A stretch of DNA of 64,000 nucleotides from Escherichia coli (GTDB taxonomy: Bacteria; Pseudomonadota; Gammaproteobacteria; Enterobacterales; Enterobacteriaceae). Below, piece by piece: positions 344 to 32,574 of this stretch. Location of the stretch: assembly GCF_003334355.1 (NCBI RefSeq), contig NZ_QOWP01000001.1, one strand, 5' to 3'. Numbering within the stretch: the stretch's first letter is position 1; every line of letters starts with the position of its first letter. The notes under the pieces were generated by a model. That model was given only the letters and a program-made list of their open reading frames with translations, was not told the origin of the DNA and did not search any database. A program made the translations under genes and the position numbers.

Positions 344-1099
344 TCAGCATTTTGGCTTGCTGCCCTGAGGCGGCAAGTAACGTAGCGGATCAATTGCCGT
401 TGCACGGTAACGAATCTGGAAATGCAGGCGAACAGATGCCGCATCCGTGCTCCCCATAGTGGCGATTTTTTGCCCAGCCTTCACGCTTTGCCCATTATTT
501 ACCAGCATCGTGTCATTATGGGCGTAAGCCGTAATGTAATCTTCACTGTGTTTAATCATGATGAGATTACCGTAGCCACGCAGCTGGTTGCCCACATACA
601 CCACCTTTCCTGCACCCGCGGCGTAAATAGGTGTACCCCGTGGAGCTGAGATATCAATCCCTTTATTGCCGCCATCTGCTGTCGAATACGGCATGATAAC
701 TTTCCCTGTCGTTGGCCATAACCAACAACGTTGCCCTACTGGCGGCCAGGATGATTTCGGTACCGCTGATGACGGTGTAACCGATGCGGTTTTGGTCGTT
801 GATTTGGCGGTTGATTTACGTGTAATACTGCTACTTTTCGCCCCACCCAGTTTTAGTTTCTGACCAACTTCAATGGTGTAAGGGGGGGAAATGCCGTTCA
901 GTCGCGCCAGTTCTTTTACGCTGGTTCCCGTGGTGCGCGAAATACGATATAGCGTATCCCCCCGTTTCACGGTGTAAACGGAGCCGGAATACGTTCCTGT
1001 ATCGGATGATTTGCTACCCGAACAGCCCGCCAAAAGCAGTCCAACCGATAACAACATCACGATACCCAGAGATTTTTTATTCAGGCGTCCCGCACTCAA
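344..1099 (-). CDS. ygeR: Lipoprotein with LysM domain and M23 (LytM-type) peptidase domain
   Basis: ORF 344..1123; signal peptide ending in lipobox LLAGC, LysM motif (YTVKRGDTLYRISRTTG), C-terminal M23 peptidase region. Start placed at TTG 1099 (251 aa) as I recall for E. coli YgeR; the ORF-track start at 1123 is also non-ATG. Confidence 0.85.
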   Translation of the reverse strand: MSAGRLNKKSLGIVMLLSVGLLLAGCSGSKSSDTGTYSGSVYTVKRGDTLYRISRTTGTSVKELARLNGISPPYTIEVGQKLKLGGAKSSSITRKSTAKSTTKTASVTPSSAVPKSSWPPVGQRCWLWPTTGKVIMPYSTADGGNKGIDISAPRGTPIYAAGAGKVVYVGNQLRGYGNLIMIKHSEDYITAYAHNDTMLVNNGQSVKAGQKIATMGSTDAASVRLHFQIRYRATAIDPLRYLPPQGSKPKC

Positions 1100-1442
1100 A
1101 ATCTTTCCTCGCTTAAAAAACAAGACGCCTTATCATAGCAGCCAGCCTCTTGATACCCAATCTCTTGCTTCTGGAAAAACGTGGTAATAGAGAAAGAGGT
1201 TAATTTCATTTGGCAAAGGGAAGTATCATCAGCAAAATATTCGCTGTAGAGGTATCGAACTTCCTGACTTTTTACCCTATTTCCCATCCTGATGCGTAAT
1301 AATCCCAATTTATCACATTGATTTTATCGCCACTCATATTGATACGTATCACTGCCCCTATTCAGAGTCCTGTTTCGTATCATATCTGTGTTTTTTTAAC
1401 GTCATCACACTTCCTACCTCCCCTAACGCTTATCGTCGTTTC

Positions 1443-1458
1443 TGGCGTAAATCTTGCC
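1443..1458 (+). promoter_or_regulatory. Candidate sigma54 (RpoN) -24/-12 promoter upstream of xdhA
   Basis: TGGCGTAAATCTTGCC: TGGC and TTGC at the canonical 11-nt offset of the sigma54 consensus TGGCACG-N4-TTGCW, about 95 bp upstream of the xdhA ATG at 1553; the sigma54 activator ygeV is encoded adjacent. Confidence 0.5.
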
Positions 1459-1552
1459 TGCTTAGACTAAATCTTTGCCATAAGAACCAAATGTTCAAAT
1501 CGAGGGGATTTCTATGGAAGCGCGGGAAGCAACCGCTACGGGTGAATCATGC

Positions 1553-3811
1553 ATGCGCGTCGATGCCATTGCTAAGGTCACCGGGCGGGCACGATATACT
1601 GACGATTATGTTATGGCGGGCATGTGTTATGCGAAATATGTACGTAGCCCTATCGCACATGGTTATGCCGTAAGTATTAATGATGAACAAGCCAGAAGTT
1701 TGCCGGGCGTACTGGCGATTTTTACCTGGGAAGATGTGCCTGATATTCCATTCGCTACAGCTGGGCATGCCTGGACACTTGACGAAAACAAGCGCGATAC
1801 CGCCGATCGCGCACTGCTAACTCGCCATGTTCGTCATCATGGTGACACCGTTGCCATCGTCGTGGCCCGCGATGAACTCACGGCAGAAAAAGCGGCGCAA
1901 TTGGTCAGCATTGAGTGGCAAGAATTACCCGTTATCACCACGCCAGAAGCGGCGCTGGCAGAAGACGCTGCACCAATCCATAACGGTGGCAATTTACTGA
2001 AACAAAGCACGATGTCGACGGGTAATGTCCAACAAACAATCGATGCCGCCGACTACCAGGTACAGGGGCACTATCAGACCCCCGTTATTCAACATTGTCA
2101 CATGGAAAGCGTAACATCGCTGGCGTGGATGGAGGATGACTCGCGAATTACCATCGTTTCCAGCACCCAGATCCCGCACATTGTTCGCCGCGTGGTTGGT
2201 CAGGCGCTGGATATTCCCTGGTCATGCGTACGAGTCATCAAACCATTTGTCGGTGGCGGTTTTGGTAATAAACAGGATGTACTGGAAGAGCCAATGGCGG
2301 CATTCCTGACCAGCAAGCTTGGCGGCATTCCGGTGAAAGTTTCCCTTAGCCGTGAAGAGTGTTTCCTCGCAACCCGTACCCGCCACGCTTTTACCATTGA
2401 CGGGCAAATGGGCGTGAACCGCGACGGAACATTGAAAGGTTATAGTCTGGATGTTCTGTCTAACACCGGCGCTTATGCATCTCACGGGCACTCCATCGCT
2501 TCTGCGGGGGGGAATAAAGTCGCTTACCTTTATCCTCGTTGTGCCTACGCTTACAGTTCAAAGACCTGCTATACCAACCTCCCCTCGGCTGGTGCGATGC
2601 GTGGTTATGGCGCGCCACAAGTCGTATTTGCCGTTGAGTCTATGCTTGATGACGCCGCGACAGCGTTAGGTATTGATCCTGTTGAAATTCGTTTACGCAA
2701 CGCCGCCCGCGAAGGAGATGCTAATCCGCTCACGGGCAAACGTATTTACAGCGCAGGGTTGCCGGAGTGTCTTGAAAAAGGCCGGAAAATCTTTGAATGG
2801 GAAAAACGCCGTGCAGAATGCCAGAACCAGCAAGGCAATTTGCGCCGCGGCGTTGGCGTCGCCTGTTTTAGCTACACCTCTAACACCTGGCCTGTCGGCG
2901 TAGAAATAGCAGGCGCGCGCCTTCTGATGAATCAGGATGGAACCATCAACGTGCAAAGCGGCGCGACGGAAATCGGTCAGGGTGCCGACACCGTCTTCTC
3001 GCAAATGGTGGCAGAAACCGTGGGGGTTCCGGTCAGCGACGTTCGCGTTATTTCAACTCAAGATACCGACGTTACGCCGTTCGATCCCGGCGCATTTGCC
3101 TCACGCCAGAGCTATGTTGCCGCGCCTGCGCTGCGCAGTGCGGCACTATTATTAAAAGAGAAAATCATCGCTCACGCCGCAGTCATGCTACATCAGTCAG
3201 CGATGAATCTGACCCTGATAAAAGGCCATATCGTGCTGGTTGAACGACCGGAAGAGCCGTTAATGTCGTTAAAAGATTTGGCGATGGACGCTTTCTACCA
3301 CCCTGAACGCGGCGGGCAGCTCTCTGCTGAAAGCTCCATCAAAACCACCACTAACCCACCGGCGTTTGGCTGTACCTTTGTTGATCTGACGGTCGATATT
3401 GCGCTGTGCAAAGTCACCATCAACCGCATCCTCAACGTTCATGATTCAGGGCATATTCTTAATCCACTGCTGGCAGAAGGTCAGGTACACGGCGGAATGG
3501 GAATGGGCATTGGCTGGGCGCTATTTGAAGAGATGATCATCGATGCTAAAAGCGGCGTGGTCCGTAACCCCAATCTGCTGGATTACAAAATGCCGACCAT
3601 GCCGGATCTGCCACAACTGGAAAGCGCGTTCGTCGAAATCAATGAGCCGCAATCCGCATACGGACATAAGTCACTGGGTGAGCCACCAATAATTCCTGTT
3701 GCCGCTGCTATTCGTAACGCGGTGAAGATGGCTACCGGTGTTGCAATCAATACACTGCCGCTGACGCCAAAACGGTTATATGAAGAGTTCCATCTGGCAG
3801 GATTGATTTGA
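1553..3811 (+). CDS. xdhA: Xanthine dehydrogenase, molybdopterin-binding large subunit
   Basis: ORF 1514..3811; aldehyde oxidase/xanthine dehydrogenase Mo-binding family sequence throughout. Start at 1553 (MRVDAIAKV, 752 aa) by recall; the upstream ATG at 1514 has a better SD (GAGGGG-N6-ATG) and may be the true start. Confidence 0.93.
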   Translation: MRVDAIAKVTGRARYTDDYVMAGMCYAKYVRSPIAHGYAVSINDEQARSLPGVLAIFTWEDVPDIPFATAGHAWTLDENKRDTADRALLTRHVRHHGDTVAIVVARDELTAEKAAQLVSIEWQELPVITTPEAALAEDAAPIHNGGNLLKQSTMSTGNVQQTIDAADYQVQGHYQTPVIQHCHMESVTSLAWMEDDSRITIVSSTQIPHIVRRVVGQALDIPWSCVRVIKPFVGGGFGNKQDVLEEPMAAFLTSKLGGIPVKVSLSREECFLATRTRHAFTIDGQMGVNRDGTLKGYSLDVLSNTGAYASHGHSIASAGGNKVAYLYPRCAYAYSSKTCYTNLPSAGAMRGYGAPQVVFAVESMLDDAATALGIDPVEIRLRNAAREGDANPLTGKRIYSAGLPECLEKGRKIFEWEKRRAECQNQQGNLRRGVGVACFSYTSNTWPVGVEIAGARLLMNQDGTINVQSGATEIGQGADTVFSQMVAETVGVPVSDVRVISTQDTDVTPFDPGAFASRQSYVAAPALRSAALLLKEKIIAHAAVMLHQSAMNLTLIKGHIVLVERPEEPLMSLKDLAMDAFYHPERGGQLSAESSIKTTTNPPAFGCTFVDLTVDIALCKVTINRILNVHDSGHILNPLLAEGQVHGGMGMGIGWALFEEMIIDAKSGVVRNPNLLDYKMPTMPDLPQLESAFVEINEPQSAYGHKSLGEPPIIPVAAAIRNAVKMATGVAINTLPLTPKRLYEEFHLAGLI

Positions 3812-3821
3812 GGATAACATC

Positions 3822-4700
3822 ATGTTTGATTTTGCTTCTTACCATCGCGCAGCAACCCTTGCCGATGCCATCAACCTGCTGGCTGACAACCCGCAGGCCA
3901 AACTGCTCGCCGGTGGCACTGACGTACTGATTCAGCTCCACCATCACAATGACCGTTATCGCCATATTGTTGATATTCATAATCTGGCGGAGCTGCGGGG
4001 AATTACGCTGGCGGAAGATGGCTCGCTACGTATCGGCTCTGCAACGACATTTACCCAGCTAATAGAAGATCCTATAACTCAACGTCATCTCCCGGCGTTA
4101 TGTGCTGCGGCCACGTCCATTGCTGGACCGCAGATCCGTAACGTCGCTACCTACGGTGGAAATATTTGCAACGGTGCCACCAGCGCAGATTCTGCCACGC
4201 CAACGCTAATTTATGACGCGAAACTGGAGATCCACTCCCCGCGCGGTGTTCGTTTCGTCCCGATTAATGGCTTTCACACCGGGCCGGGCAAAGTGTCTCT
4301 TGAGCATGACGAAATCCTCGTCGCCTTTCATTTTCCGCCACAGCCGAAAGAACACGCGGGCAGCGCGCATTTTAAATATGCCATGCGCGACGCAATGGAT
4401 ATTTCAACGATTGGCTGCGCCGCACATTGCCGACTGGATAACGGCAATTTCAGCGAATTACGCCTGGCATTTGGTGTTGCCGCGCCAACGCCGATTCGCT
4501 GCCAACATGCCGAACAGACTGCACAAAATGCGCCATTAAACCTGCAAACGCTGGAAGCTATCAGCGAATCTGTCCTGCAAGATGTCGCCCCGCGTTCTTC
4601 ATGGCGGGCCAGTAAAGAGTTTCGTCTGCATCTCATCCAGACGATGACCAAAAAAGTGATTAGCGAAGCCGTCGCCGCGGCGGGGGGAAAATTGCAATGA
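3822..4700 (+). CDS. xdhB: Xanthine dehydrogenase, FAD-binding subunit
   Basis: 292-aa ORF; CO dehydrogenase flavoprotein-like FAD-binding domain (LLAGGTDV motif); follows xdhA by 10 bp. Confidence 0.93.
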
Positions 4701-5176
4701 ATCACAGCGAAACAATTACCATCGAATGCACCATTAACGGGATGCCTTTTCAGCTTCACGCCGCACCAGGCACGCCGCTCTCGGAATTACTCCGCGAACA
4801 AGGACTGCTAAGTGTCAAACAAGGGTGCTGCGTGGGTGAATGTGGTGCCTGTACGGTGTTGGTCGACGGCACAGCAATAGACAGTTGCTTATACCTTGCC
4901 GCCTGGGCTGAAGGAAAAGAGATCCGCACGCTGGAAGGTGAAGCGAAAGGCGGAAAACTTTCTCATGTTCAGCAGGCTTATGCGAAATCCGGCGCAGTGC
5001 AGTGCGGGTTTTGTACGCCTGGCCTGATTATGGCTACCACGGCAATGCTGGCGAAACCACGCGAGAAGCCATTAACCATTACGGAAATTCGTCGCGGACT
5101 GGCGGGAAATCTTTGTCGCTGCACGGGGTATCAGATGATTGTAAATACAGTTCTGGATTGCGAGAAAACGAAGTAA
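4697..5176 (+). CDS. xdhC: Xanthine dehydrogenase, [2Fe-2S] iron-sulfur subunit
   Basis: 159-aa ORF; two 2Fe-2S cysteine clusters ([11 protein letters not shown] and CGFCTPG...CRCTGY); start overlaps the xdhB stop (ATGA). Confidence 0.93.
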
Positions 5177-5215: not shown

Positions 5216-6994
5216 TTATGTGTTTAACAACTCATATTTCTTAATCTTGCGATAGAGCGTAGCAATGCCGATGCCCAGTTCATCAGCAACTTGCTTCTTG
5301 CTGTTATGACGTGAAAGCACCTCGCGGATCATTTGCTTTTCCATCTCCTCCAGCGCCGTGCCGCCCGCATCATCGAGTGACAGGTGCGCCTCACTGACCT
5401 CTGTTACATCACTTTGCTCCGTTGTGCCATTATTCAGCAGATTTGGCGGCAATAGCGTGCTGTCGATAACTTCACCTGAAGGAACCACGTTAACCAGATA
5501 TTCCATCAAATTGCTTAACTCGCGCAGGTTTCCGGGCCAACGATGCTTACGCAATATTTCGACGACATCGGGAGCAATGCCAGGATAAACCGATCCCAGA
5601 CGACGGGTATGCAGATGTAAAAAGTAATGCACCAATAGTTCAATATCTTCCTGACGTTCACGCAGCGGTGGCAGAGTTATCGGGATAACATTAAGTCGGT
5701 AGAAGAGATCTTCGCGGAATTTACCTTCGGCAATGAACTGGGCCAAATTCTGATTAGTTGCAGAAATGATGCGAATGTCGACTTGTATTGGGCTACTGGC
5801 ACCAATCGGCAGAATTTCACGCGCCTCAATAGCGCGCAGTAATTTAGCCTGCAACATTAATGGCATATCACCTATTTCATCGAGAAACAGCGTGCCCGTA
5901 TTCGCCGCCTGAATCAACCCTGTTTTACCGTTGGCAGAAGCGCCAGTAAATGCGCCTTTAACATAACCGAACAGTTCGCTTTCCAGAAGCTGCTCCGGAA
6001 TCGCGGCACAGTTGATAGCAATAAAGGGTTTATTCCGTCTTCCGCTCAACTTATGGATTGCTCGGGCGACGACTTCTTTACCCGTGCCGCTTTCACCAAC
6101 CACCATAACGCTGGATGGGCTGGGTGCAATACGGCTAATGAGTCGTTTTAATTGCCGCATAACACGGCACTCGCCAACCAATTGTTCAATATGTGGTTCA
6201 TCAGGTGCATTTGCTACAGAAAAACTGGTATGCGATTGGTGAAATGCCATTAAAAATAATTGTCGGCCCTGAATGTTATGCAATTGACCAATGATTAATT
6301 CACTTTTATCGTCCCACGAAACAATATGCTGCATATGTCCATGAGTAAAATTACTCTCAAATGTTAATGGTCTGAAACGGATAGGTTTCCCAATAATATT
6401 ATTTTGTACAACACCAAGTGTTTTTAAGGCAGTCTGATTAACAAACTGAACCCGACTTTCATCATCAACAACTAATACGCCCTGATCCATATTATCGATC
6501 ATGGTCGCGAATATTTTACTGATGTTATCTCCTGGCCCCTGATCCTCCAGAAGTTTCGAAACAAAAATGGTGGATATATGGCGAACATAATCAGAAAATT
6601 CGCGTAAATTATCACTGATATGCTCTTGTTGCTCGTGGGTAACGGCAATCAAACTTATCACCCCAACACAACGATCCTGTAAAATGACAGGCGTACCCAG
6701 AAATGCTTTTTCGCGGCAATTTTCTTTACTATCGCAACCTTCGCAAAGGGGATCGAAGCGAGACTGTGTCACAACTTTTTCAGTTTTCGTTTCCAGGACG
6801 TGGCGGAGCAGGCGTGAGTTGCCGCTCAACTGGCGACCAAGAAACTTCCCATACGCGCCCGTTCCGGCAACGCGACACAAGTTTTCATCAACGATCTCAA
6901 CCTCAAGCTGCAAAACGCTGGCAAGCATTCTGGCAAAACGCTGAATTGTCGGTTGAATTTGCATCAATACTGACTGCGTAGTAGCAAGCTCCAT
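5216..6994 (-). CDS. ygeV: Sigma54-dependent transcriptional activator (enhancer-binding protein) with N-terminal sensory region
   Basis: 592-aa ORF; AAA+ Walker A GESGTGKE, sigma54-contact GAFTGA motif (GYVKGAFTGA), C-terminal Fis-type HTH (ELGIGIATLYRKIKKY). Confidence 0.93.
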   Translation of the reverse strand: MELATTQSVLMQIQPTIQRFARMLASVLQLEVEIVDENLCRVAGTGAYGKFLGRQLSGNSRLLRHVLETKTEKVVTQSRFDPLCEGCDSKENCREKAFLGTPVILQDRCVGVISLIAVTHEQQEHISDNLREFSDYVRHISTIFVSKLLEDQGPGDNISKIFATMIDNMDQGVLVVDDESRVQFVNQTALKTLGVVQNNIIGKPIRFRPLTFESNFTHGHMQHIVSWDDKSELIIGQLHNIQGRQLFLMAFHQSHTSFSVANAPDEPHIEQLVGECRVMRQLKRLISRIAPSPSSVMVVGESGTGKEVVARAIHKLSGRRNKPFIAINCAAIPEQLLESELFGYVKGAFTGASANGKTGLIQAANTGTLFLDEIGDMPLMLQAKLLRAIEAREILPIGASSPIQVDIRIISATNQNLAQFIAEGKFREDLFYRLNVIPITLPPLRERQEDIELLVHYFLHLHTRRLGSVYPGIAPDVVEILRKHRWPGNLRELSNLMEYLVNVVPSGEVIDSTLLPPNLLNNGTTEQSDVTEVSEAHLSLDDAGGTALEEMEKQMIREVLSRHNSKKQVADELGIGIATLYRKIKKYELLNT

Positions 6995-7363
6995 AGCTTT
7001 ACCTTCCAGACTTACTTAAAAGTCGATCATTGAAGACGTTGATGGTTCACAGATCATGATGATATTAACTCAGGCGAAATTGGCTTTGATAAAAACATAA
7101 GATTTTTATCATTTTCTAATGAAATTATGGAAGAGATATCACATTTCTATATCAATATGAGAATTACGGCGGTGAGTTTATCAAACTGAAGAGAGATAGC
7201 CTGCCCCTTTATCTTATTTCTGATACTTAGCAGCAAATAAATAACGCGATAAAAAAAGCCAAACGTTTTCGTATTTTACAAACAACCAGAAGCTGGCATC
7301 AATTTGTGATCAACCCCACACATTATCCGTCAAATTAGTCGTTTGCAGCCGCGCGGATAATTC

Positions 7364-7378
7364 TGGCACACTTATTGT
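7364..7378 (+). promoter_or_regulatory. Candidate sigma54 promoter upstream of ygeW (imperfect -12 element)
   Basis: TGGCACACTTATTGT: perfect -24 TGGCAC, with TTGT rather than TTGC at the -12 position at the correct spacing; about 90 bp upstream of ygeW, divergent from ygeV. Confidence 0.35.
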
Positions 7379-7469
7379 TAGTCCCAGGTATAGCTGTGAA
7401 AACACCAATCACTTTGGCAAGTCACAGTGAAATAAACCACTTTGCCTGTCATTCCACTACCGGGACTTT

Positions 7470-8717: not shown

Positions 8718-9914
8718 ATGTCCGTTTTCTCATTGAAGATTGATATCGCCGATAACAAATTTTTCAACGGCGAAACATCACCGCTCTTTTCGCAAAGCCA
8801 AGCCAAACTGGCGCGCCAGTTCCACCAGAAAATAGCTGGTTATCGCCCAACACCGCTTTGTGCGCTGGACGATCTCGCAAACCTTTTTGGTGTGAAGAAA
8901 ATTCTCGTCAAAGACGAATCAAAACGATTCGGTCTGAACGCCTTCAAAATGCTTGGCGGTGCGTACGCCATCGCTCAATTATTGTGTGAAAAATATCATC
9001 TTGATATCGAAACGCTGTCATTTGAGCACCTGAAAAATACCATCGGCGAAAAAATGACTTTCGCGACCACCACCGACGGCAACCACGGGCGCGGTGTGGC
9101 GTGGGCAGCACAGCAACTCGGACAGAATGCGGTGATTTACATGCCGAAAGGTTCTGCTCAGGAACGCGTTGACGCCATTCTGAACCTCGGTGCCGAGTGC
9201 ATCGTCACAGATATGAACTATGACGATACCGTTCGCCTGACCATGCAACACGCGCAGCAGCACGGCTGGGAAGTGGTACAGGACACGGCATGGGAAGGTT
9301 ACACCAAAATCCCAACCTGGATCATGCAAGGCTACGCAACCCTGGCAGATGAAGCCGTCGAGCAAATGCGTGAAATGGGCGTAACCCCGACGCACGTTCT
9401 GCTGCAAGCCGGTGTCGGAGCAATGGCCGGTGGTGTGCTGGGTTATCTGGTCGACGTCTACAGCCCGCAAAATCTGCACAGCATTATTGTTGAACCTGAC
9501 AAAGCTGACTGTATTTATCGCTCCGGCGTCAAAGGCGACATCGTCAACGTTGGCGGTGATATGGCCACCATCATGGCGGGCCTGGCCTGTGGCGAACCTA
9601 ACCCGCTGGGCTGGGAAATCCTACGTAACTGCGCCACCCAATTCATCTCCTGCCAGGACAGCGTTGCCGCATTAGGTATGCGCGTGCTGGGTAATCCGTA
9701 CGGCAACGACCCGCGCATCATCTCCGGTGAATCCGGCGCTGTCGGTTTGGGCGTTCTCGCAGCGGTTCATTATCACCCGCAACGTCAAAGCCTGATGGAA
9801 AAACTGGCGCTGAACAAAGATGCCGTAGTGCTGGTTATCAGTACTGAAGGCGACACCGACGTGAAGCACTACCGCGAAGTTGTCTGGGAAGGCAAACACG
9901 CTGTAGCACCTTAA
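8718..9914 (+). CDS. ygeX: Diaminopropionate ammonia-lyase (PLP-dependent)
   Basis: 398-aa ORF; PLP fold-type II sequence; recognised as E. coli YgeX/DpaL. Confidence 0.9.
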   Translation: MSVFSLKIDIADNKFFNGETSPLFSQSQAKLARQFHQKIAGYRPTPLCALDDLANLFGVKKILVKDESKRFGLNAFKMLGGAYAIAQLLCEKYHLDIETLSFEHLKNTIGEKMTFATTTDGNHGRGVAWAAQQLGQNAVIYMPKGSAQERVDAILNLGAECIVTDMNYDDTVRLTMQHAQQHGWEVVQDTAWEGYTKIPTWIMQGYATLADEAVEQMREMGVTPTHVLLQAGVGAMAGGVLGYLVDVYSPQNLHSIIVEPDKADCIYRSGVKGDIVNVGGDMATIMAGLACGEPNPLGWEILRNCATQFISCQDSVAALGMRVLGNPYGNDPRIISGESGAVGLGVLAAVHYHPQRQSLMEKLALNKDAVVLVISTEGDTDVKHYREVVWEGKHAVAP

Positions 9915-32139: not shown

Positions 32140-32574
32140 TTGCATCCCTTTCATTTAATGAGTTATGTCTTCTCAAATTTCGCGATGCAATAAACGGGCA
32201 TATATTAGGTAGCATGACCGTTTTAATTATAATTTTGCGACTGAGTTCAAATTATTGCCCCTCAAACTATGCCGCTTTCATTATTTCAACATTGCCGATC
32301 AAAAGAGCGCTATCCAGATAAAAACGATTAAATGCGAGAGTGCGACATGCCAGAATGATTAATGAAATATCAATATGAGAAAATTACAGATAATTCCATT
32401 GTCAGGTTCTCTTGTCATTTTCGTGGTTTAAGCACGATTATGTGATTGCCTCCGCAATTCCTGTCTCTAACTTCCCTTCCTCGCAAAAACTGGCACTCCA
32501 CGAGCATGTGTTTAGACAGTTTCATTAACGTAAACGGTTGCTTTTTACTCTGGCGGGCGAAAGGAGAAACACTG

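Follow-up and report, generated by a model that had tools for sequence, protein, structure and literature searches.

The xdh/ygeW/ygfK gene cluster of Escherichia coli serves anaerobic urate degradation by gut bacteria and is relevant to hyperuricaemia and gout. How transcription of its xdhABC operon is switched on is the question raised by the 64,000 nucleotides of E. coli DNA analysed here ("the window"), in which glyU, actS, xdhABC, ygeV and ygeW are followed by the remaining purine/urate catabolism cluster. In 2000, Xi, Schneider and Reitzer reportedly predicted that this cluster of 23 genes has several sigma-54 promoters, and reportedly could not show these predicted promoters to be active. 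A sequence-only reading of the window had proposed that xdhABC depends on RpoN and is activated by the product of the neighbouring ygeV gene, a dependence that it did not know to have been demonstrated.

We found TGGCGTAAATCTTGCC on the + strand at 1443-1458. Its GG (1444-1445) and its GC (1456-1457) have exactly the GG-N10-GC spacing of a sigma-54 -24/-12 element, as that reading had claimed. Its description of the element as near-consensus holds for the tetramers TGGC and TTGC, which are both perfect, but not for four flanking consensus positions (GTA follows TGGC where the consensus has ACG, and C follows TTGC where it has A or T). The matrix scan that had been proposed as a check was run with a sigma-54 PSSM trained on 38 ChIP-verified intergenic E. 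coli sites, with the four sites of this cluster left out. The 17-mer CTGGCGTAAATCTTGCC scored 11.9 bits, ranking sixth among about 128,000 window positions, against a median of 16.9 and a minimum of 8.0 bits for the training sites; the PSSM of Bonocora et al. 2015 gives the xdhA site a score of 10.9, mid-range in their table (PMC4591121). The xdhA element is a good sigma-54 site, short of near-perfect. The core pattern TGGC-N7-TTGC occurs in the window at chance frequency (5 matches on both strands against 4.4 expected, with 45 of 100 shuffles reaching 5), and the argument is therefore carried by context. The copy at 1443-1458 is the sole intergenic one of the five, the rest being located inside ubiI, serA, rpiA and argP.

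The promoter points at xdhA, and the RefSeq start codon at 1514 (765 aa) is found 56 nt past the motif, a plausible leader distance. The distance of about 95 bp given by the sequence-only reading is right for the older start at 1553 (752 aa) and wrong for the RefSeq start, and the same old-start offset accounts for the distances of "-110 to -93" in Zhao et al. and "84" in Bonocora et al. Transcription from the predicted start would leave a 45-nt leader up to the ATG. An Rfam scan of 1000-1700 at E <= 1 matched no family and revealed no leader RNA element.

The dependence of xdhABC on RpoN is already on record. Zhao et al. 2010 list b2866 xdhA in their Table 2 among 22 new sigma-54 regulon genes, with the promoter sequence tttcTGGCGTAAATCTTGCCTGctta, and in their microarrays xdhA expression had risen 4.9-fold five minutes after induction of sigma-54 and was lowered 2.1-fold when rpoN was deleted (PMC2831329). 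In Table 1 of Bonocora et al. 2015, xdhA is the sigma-54 ChIP-seq site OS29, CTGGCGTAAATCTTGCC on the + strand, with a fold-above-threshold of 11 and the EcoCyc flag "C" for experimentally confirmed (PMC4591121). The motif centre of OS29, at MG1655 2,998,264, corresponds to window position 1450, and occupancy of 1442-1458 by sigma-54 RNA polymerase, as a closed complex, has been shown in the literature. The same table holds ygeW as OS30, ygfK as OS31 and ygfT as OS32, and Table 2 of that study a validated intragenic sigma-54 promoter in yqeC that drives yqeB (PMC4591121); OS29 to OS32 and the yqeC promoter all map into the window at the expected offsets. Lamoureux et al. 2023 credit the identification of the xdhABC and ygeWXY sigma-54 promoters to Reitzer & Schneider 2001 (PMC10602906). 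The in vitro SELEX of Shimada with the sigma-54 holoenzyme lists the ygeV/ygeW spacer, and the xdhA promoter is absent from it, a point on the contrary side. What was noticed in the window is the xdhABC sigma-54 promoter that EcoCyc and two genome-wide sigma-54 studies already record, and is the same object as xdhAp of E. coli K-12 (Zhao 2010, OS29, EcoCyc), to which it is identical in sequence, position and orientation. This promoter is almost certainly real, and by itself it adds nothing new. As to what had been taken as not demonstrated, the RpoN half is published for this very sequence, and the YgeV half stands: we found no paper testing YgeV dependence or YgeV binding at xdhA. The features of the locus and of its proposed co-regulated promoters are collected in Table 1.

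Table 1. Positions in the window of the xdhABC promoter region, of ygeV and of related elements in the cluster
Feature	Position	Strand	Sequence, score or geometry	Basis
actS (ygeR)	344-1099	-		annotation
Palindrome site 1, candidate YgeV enhancer site	1311-1323	.	TATCACATTGATT; 15.2 bits; centre 125 bp before 17-mer	
Palindrome site 2, upstream of xdhA	1332-1344	.	ACTCATATTGATA; 16.2 bits; centre 104 bp before 17-mer; 21 bp from site 1	
CRP-core-like 16-mer (putative CRP site)	1394-1409	+	TTTTAACGTCATCACA; its TCACA (1405-1409) at -37 from 17-mer	
Sigma-54 -24/-12 promoter element of xdhABC	1442-1458	+	CTGGCGTAAATCTTGCC	PSSM, ChIP-seq OS29, Zhao 2010, conservation
Predicted transcription start	1469	+	motif centre + 19 nt	Bonocora's rule
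Shine-Dalgarno for start codon 1514	1502-1507	+	GAGGGG	sequence, RefSeq start
xdhABC operon	1514-5176	+	xdhA 1514-3811, xdhB 3822-4700, xdhC 4697-5176	ORFs, annotation
ygeV, bEBP	5216-6994	-	PAS, sigma-54-interaction AAA+, HTH_8	annotation (sigma-54-dependent Fis-family regulator), Pfam
Second palindrome in ygeV/ygeW spacer	7052-7064		13.1 bits	
Palindrome in ygeV/ygeW spacer	7150-7162		18.3 bits	
CRP-like site at ygeW	7305-7320			
ygeW sigma-54 promoter, proposed YgeV regulon	7363-7379	+	palindromes 7150-7162, 7052-7064	ChIP OS30
Palindrome inside dpaL	8994-9006		15.7 bits	
Palindrome inside yqeC	15608		15.0 bits	
Palindrome upstream of ygfK	16998-17010		19.9 bits; weaker partner 17018-17030	
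CRP-like sites at ygfK	17131-17146, 17101-17116			
ygfK sigma-54 promoter, proposed YgeV regulon	17179-17195	+	palindromes 16998-17010, 17018-17030	ChIP OS31
ygfT sigma-54 promoter, proposed YgeV regulon	32186-32202	-	palindromes 32368-32380, 32348-32360	ChIP OS32
CRP-like site at ygfT	32236-32251			
Palindrome in ygfT/uacT spacer	32368-32380		18.3 bits; weaker partner 32348-32360	

Within E. coli the region is close to uniform. The window corresponds to the K-12 chromosome in the neighbourhood of glyU, actS, xdhABC, ygeV and ygeW. A 501-bp query across the promoter matches 5,412 of 5,426 complete E. coli genomes, with 100% identity in the K-12-derived C600, and four divergent E. coli strains are 98% identical here, and their promoter spacer shows a single A-to-T change, a variation too low to inform. 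We compared the xdhA loci of ten other genera (Citrobacter, Klebsiella, Kluyvera, "[Enterobacter] lignolyticus", Yokenella, Morganella, Hafnia, Edwardsiella, Aeromonas and Serratia), whose XdhA sequences share 89% to 68% identity with that of E. coli. In all ten, the best + strand sigma-54 PSSM match within 600 bp upstream of xdhA was found 40-79 nt before the ATG, in the form TGGCG(T/C)...TTGC(C/T/A). At Aeromonas xdhA the -24 element is AGGC, and the opposite strand has a slightly higher-scoring match. The gene upstream of xdhA varies by locus (actS, DUF554, mutS, another bEBP, a PTS operon, dapB or a permease); as this neighbour changes while the element stays, the element travels with xdhA and not with the neighbourhood. 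This conservation is strong evidence, independent of the ChIP data, that the element is functional.

The sequence-only reading had placed ygeV convergently and directly after xdhC as the only enhancer-binding protein gene of the window, and both points proved correct. The gene starts 40 bp past the xdhC stop, and the GAFTGA at YgeV residue 347 is the sole GAFTGA in the six-frame translation of the window. The Pfam domains of YgeV are PAS_8, Sigma54_activat, AAA_lid_14 and HTH_8, without a receiver domain. Between E. coli, Citrobacter, Klebsiella, E. lignolyticus, Yokenella and Morganella, YgeV identity falls to 65%, yet all six share the same GAFTGA and the same HTH segment, ELGIGIATLYRKIKKY. 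An HTH that is invariant despite 65% identity is what would be expected if the DNA target is conserved. Furthermore, ygeV adjoins xdhABC in Citrobacter, Klebsiella, E. lignolyticus and Yokenella and is found about 1.2 kb beyond xdhC in Morganella. In five of the ten other genera ygeV is not beside xdhABC, which counts against the model; among the matches listed, which were crowded with E. coli variants, full-length YgeV orthologues appear by name for two of these genera, Edwardsiella and Kluyvera, and for none of Hafnia, Serratia and Aeromonas.

Activation of xdhABC by YgeV is the leading hypothesis and has already been proposed in the literature. The "YgeV iModulon" contains xdhABC (Lamoureux et al. 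2023, PMC10602906; member list in PMC12133099), does not include ygeV itself and is activated under unusual conditions, by ethanol in baeR or cpxR knockouts (PMC10602906), and these two points count against the hypothesis. The same paper reports reduced ygfT expression in a ygeV mutant (PMC10602906). The mBio 2022 paper that renames YgeV as IsrR makes no mention of xdh. The comparative analysis supports, indirectly, a role for YgeV as the probable activator of xdhA.

When the regions upstream of xdhA were aligned on the promoter, an extensive inverted repeat emerged some 100-190 bp before it. We enumerated dyads in the ten non-E. coli upstream regions (a 5-mer and its reverse complement, separated by N0-8, with at most one mismatch) and found that TATCA-N3-TGATA ranks first among all dyads, occurring in 8 of the 10 regions and in 5 of the 6 of a divergent subset, while the maxima in shuffled sets were 4 for all regions (50 sets) and 3 for the divergent subset. 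From the non-E. coli orthologues only, we trained a PWM for the 13-bp palindrome, with the consensus TATCATAATGATA or, with its variable positions, T[A/C]TCA-N3-TGA[T/G]A. Applied to the E. coli window, seven of its eight best matches adjoin ChIP-mapped sigma-54 sites of the cluster. All six intergenic matches of at least 13 bits are located in the four sigma-54 intergenic regions, among 40 intergenic regions, while per-region dinucleotide shuffles gave a mean of 0.2 matches and none of 500 trials reached six. Site 1 upstream of xdhA is invariant in the four divergent E. coli strains.

The palindromes are paired 20-21 bp apart (1311/1332, 16998/17018 and 32348/32368), a stronger site with a weaker partner. 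Among the xdhA orthologues, site centres are found 104-105, 124-126, 145-147, 166-167 or 187 bp before the 17-mer, which is a 21-bp lattice with a circular resultant of 0.98, so that the sites keep their helical phase to the promoter when the distance shifts. The module at ygeW recurs in five genera. Its promoter 17-mer is identical in Citrobacter, Klebsiella, E. lignolyticus and Yokenella and reads TTGGCATGCTTATTGTT in Morganella; its palindrome is TATCAATATGAGA in the first four and TATCAATATGATA in Morganella, 207-211 bp upstream in all five. The module also recurs upstream of ygfM-xdhD in Kluyvera and upstream of ygfK in Aeromonas, where every palindrome match in the 21 kb is upstream of a sigma-54-like motif. 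The operons that carry the palindrome module match the published YgeV iModulon.

Two of the eight best PWM matches are located inside genes. The one in dpaL was rejected as a site: in more distant genera synonymous substitutions erode it, and for that reason it is read as a coding coincidence. The one in yqeC sits 250 bp downstream of the yqeC sigma-54 promoter, which counts against the model.

Collectively, these results suggest that YgeV acts through the palindromes, and we hold this to be fairly probable. It is unlikely, by our estimate, that the TATCA-N3-TGATA palindromes are instead bound by Fur or by some repressor or activator not yet characterised, while YgeV uses other sites. The palindrome upstream of ygfK, with its flanks, does match the Fur box at 13 of 19 positions, but the remaining palindromes do so at just 11 of 19, and a Fur box was rejected as the identity of the palindrome, these matches being unconvincing. 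The conserved positions are TCA/TGA cores with A/C and T/G variation (TCTCA...TGAGA) and not GATAAT hexamers. To lie in pairs on a single face of the helix, 100-200 bp upstream, is moreover classic for the sites of a bEBP, and the intergenic palindromes occur only beside sigma-54 promoters; both points argue against such a different regulator.

That protein could also be one other than YgeV, for example NtrC firing a real sigma-54 promoter under nitrogen limitation, which we consider somewhat less likely still. Purine catabolism yields nitrogen, the transcript of the neighbouring yqeC-internal sigma-54 promoter is induced under nitrogen limitation according to the literature, and an NtrC SELEX peak has been reported inside xdhB/xdhC. 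However, a search upstream of xdhA found no NtrC-like site (the closest sequence departs from the consensus at 5 of the 14 specified positions), the conserved upstream palindrome is unrelated to the NtrC consensus, and that palindrome is common to precisely the operons of the YgeV iModulon. The preferred activator remains YgeV. As for its signal, ygfK and ygfT are strongly induced by urate in E. coli (Liu et al. preprint), and since both bear the module, urate or a derivative is a candidate.

Between the palindromes and the promoter we found a further conserved element. TCAC[A/G] occurs at -37/-38, counted from the first base of the 17-mer, in 11 of 11 xdhA orthologues, amid otherwise diverged sequence, and at the same position in E. 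coli ygfK. Published records of the xdhA promoter describe neither this -37 TCACA element nor the upstream palindromes. The 16-mer that contains it at E. coli xdhA differs from the CRP core TGTGA-N6-TCACA by two mismatches, both at G positions of the left half. CRP-like 16-mers are present at all five sigma-54 promoters of the cluster, centred at -40/-41 (xdhA, ygfK and ygfT) or at -50/-51 (ygeW and yqeC), one helical turn apart, and ygfK has an additional perfect CRP core at -70. The window holds 37 matches to the CRP core with at most two mismatches where 28 would be expected, which is hardly an enrichment, and the assignment to CRP therefore rests on position and context and not on motif score. 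As to that context, urate degradation in E. coli has been reported to be glucose-repressed, and the Liu et al. preprint likewise suspects suppression by glucose. The ygeV-ygeW spacer is reported to contain a native Crp site. The best match to an IHF core between enhancer and promoter at xdhA has 2 mismatches in 9 positions.

We propose that the sigma-54 RNA polymerase known to sit on the -24/-12 element would start near 1469 and would need an enhancer-binding ATPase to fire. This activator is most likely YgeV, dimers of which may occupy the two imperfect palindromes, 21 bp apart on one helix face and about 130-150 bp upstream of the start, and would contact sigma-54 through DNA looping. The intervening TCACA probably serves to place a protein that bends DNA, for instance cAMP-CRP, and this would account for the glucose repression of the pathway; the inducing signal may be urate. 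The same three-part module is found before ygeW, ygfK and ygfT, which would place xdhABC in one YgeV-controlled regulon of purine/urate catabolism. Taken as a whole, this model (the sigma-54 promoter, YgeV on the palindromes, the CRP-like element and the shared regulon) seems to us probable.

The paired palindromes on their 21-bp lattice, the TCAC[A/G] at -37 and the sigma-54 core form a conserved module that we did not find in the literature. Whether this module may be read more widely, as the YgeV operator defining a regulon of anaerobic purine/urate catabolism from Enterobacterales to Aeromonas, with CRP in the architectural role usually taken by IHF, we regard as an even call. The candidate operator and the CRP-like element offer the exact bases to mutate, making testable the roles of YgeV as a urate-responsive activator and of CRP behind glucose repression, as well as the membership of the regulon. 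These elements could also guide the engineering of urate-degrading probiotics without swapping the whole intergenic region.

That the promoter, the enhancer and the TCACA element have been conserved together in two bacterial orders, at fixed geometry, also makes it very improbable that the sigma-54 holoenzyme binds a non-productive "parking" site while xdhABC is transcribed from another promoter. Many sigma-54 ChIP sites may indeed never fire (Bonocora et al. 2015, PMC4591121), but expression of xdhA responds to the level of sigma-54 (Zhao et al. 2010, PMC2831329). Moreover, a credible sigma-70 promoter is absent upstream of xdhA, where the search gave a single 9/12 match (1210-1238), no more than expected by chance. 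A chance match of the motif, for which its core frequency in the window could be quoted, can practically be dismissed, being refuted by ChIP-seq occupancy (PMC4591121) and by conservation in ten other genera at a similar distance from xdhA.

The arrangement proposed for xdhA, with YgeV as activator, has parallels among known sigma-54 systems. FhlA, like the proposed YgeV, is a cluster-encoded bEBP of the non-receiver type that serves several anaerobic sigma-54 promoters from upstream enhancers. Its sensor is a GAF domain and its effector formate, whereas the sensor of YgeV is a PAS domain with urate as a possible effector, and the enhancer sequences differ. FhlA promoters use IHF, whereas xdhA has no IHF core of fewer than two mismatches between enhancer and promoter. 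At glnAp2, which is modulated by CRP, NtrC binds, about 100-140 bp upstream, paired palindromic sites that have 3-bp spacers and share one helix face, as seen for the palindromes at xdhA. NtrC is a phosphorylated response regulator, whereas YgeV has a PAS domain and, in its Pfam matches, lacks a receiver domain, and the half-sites are unrelated (TGCACC for NtrC and T[A/C]TCA for the xdhA palindromes). PrpR at prpBCDE combines a catabolic sigma-54 promoter and a local bEBP with catabolite repression through cAMP-CRP. The PrpR system needs cAMP-CRP; at xdhA, a part for CRP is suggested by the half-site-like element and by the glucose repression of urate degradation. Promoters of the FhlA formate regulon (hyc, hyp, fdhF and hydN) and prpB, as OS01, appear in the same ChIP table of Bonocora et al. 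as the xdhA site (PMC4591121).

In other genera, the gene order of the cluster is rearranged, as seen at the Kluyvera and Aeromonas loci fetched for comparison, and the enhancer-promoter modules are retained in these rearranged clusters. In Kluyvera (L007/L017), ygfM-xdhD-xanQ-guaD-ghxQ directly follows xdhABC, and neither ygeV nor ygeW is found near xdhABC. The Aeromonas order (L016) is yqeC, mocA, ygfK, ssnA, ygfM, xdhD, permease, deaminase, permease, xdhABC. Orthologous promoters in both genera also bear on the register of the ygfK sigma-54 promoter, for which the placements of Zhao 2010 (PMC2831329) and Bonocora 2015 (PMC4591121) differ and overlap by 8 bp. Because of a TCACA at -37, together with these orthologous promoters, we favour the latter register.

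In the spacer between ygfT and uacT, a weak sigma-54-like 17-mer lies 69 nt before the uacT start (32575); it retains GG-N10-GC and carries GA in place of TT. A CRP-like 16-mer is located at -41 from this 17-mer, and the ygfT copy of the palindrome T[A/C]TCA-N3-TGA[T/G]A, the candidate YgeV enhancer site, lies 116 bp upstream of it and is common to both sides. The published co-expression set termed the YgeV iModulon includes uacT (PMC12133099); the sigma-54 ChIP table (PMC4591121) has no site for this gene. We hypothesize that the divergent ygfT and uacT promoters may be served by a single enhancer.

Features discussed, with window coordinates (bits: PSSM score for 17-mers, orthologue-trained PWM score for palindromes)
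Feature	Coordinates	Strand	Remarks
FNR-like TTGATACGTATCAC	1338-1351		9/10 positions of FNR consensus TTGAT-N4-ATCAA
Sigma-54-like CTTGCCAGCGTTTTGCA	6909-6925	-	9.9 bits; within first 30 codons of ygeV
Palindrome TATCATCTTGATA	8994-9006		inside dpaL/ygeX; two perfect half-sites; codes for YHLD
Palindrome TCTCACATTGAGA	15608-15620		inside yqeC; strong match, 15.0 bits
yqeC-internal sigma-54 promoter	15848-15864	-	validated
ygfK promoter, Zhao 2010	17170-17186	+	
ygfK promoter, Bonocora 2015	17179-17195	+	
ygfT palindrome	32368-32380		
Sigma-54-like CTGGCACTCCACGAGCA, uacT side	32490-32506	+	7.5 bits
Sigma-54-like CTGTCGCGATTTTTGCA	52058-52074	-	15.1 bits; second-best PSSM match of window

Palindromes were also found inside genes. 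The yqeC copy is located 250 bp downstream of the yqeC-internal sigma-54 promoter and therefore within the long 5′ leader of yqeB. This copy may act as an enhancer from a downstream position, may be a site serving a second promoter, or may be a coincidence. The dpaL copy is probably a coding coincidence, since synonymous changes destroy its half-sites in E. lignolyticus, Yokenella and Morganella.

Two further sigma-54-like 17-mers have no entry in the ChIP table (PMC4591121). The one in ygeV is in sense orientation, and its Klebsiella equivalent, CTGGCCAGCGTTTTGCA, scores 14.6 bits. The other, 183 bp upstream of gcvT, is probably not functional because the -24 GG is also missing.

Upstream of xdhA, the FNR-like sequence overlaps the second palindrome; it is found in the E. 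coli strains examined and absent from the other genera compared. As the purine/urate pathway is anaerobic, this candidate may be a lineage-specific FNR input at xdhA.

Finally, the xdhA start codon is annotated two ways, at 1514 in RefSeq (765 aa, with a good Shine-Dalgarno, GAGGGG) and at 1553 in the older b2866 model (752 aa), and promoter-to-gene distances therefore vary across the literature. The orthologues (761-772 aa) begin at the position equivalent to 1514.
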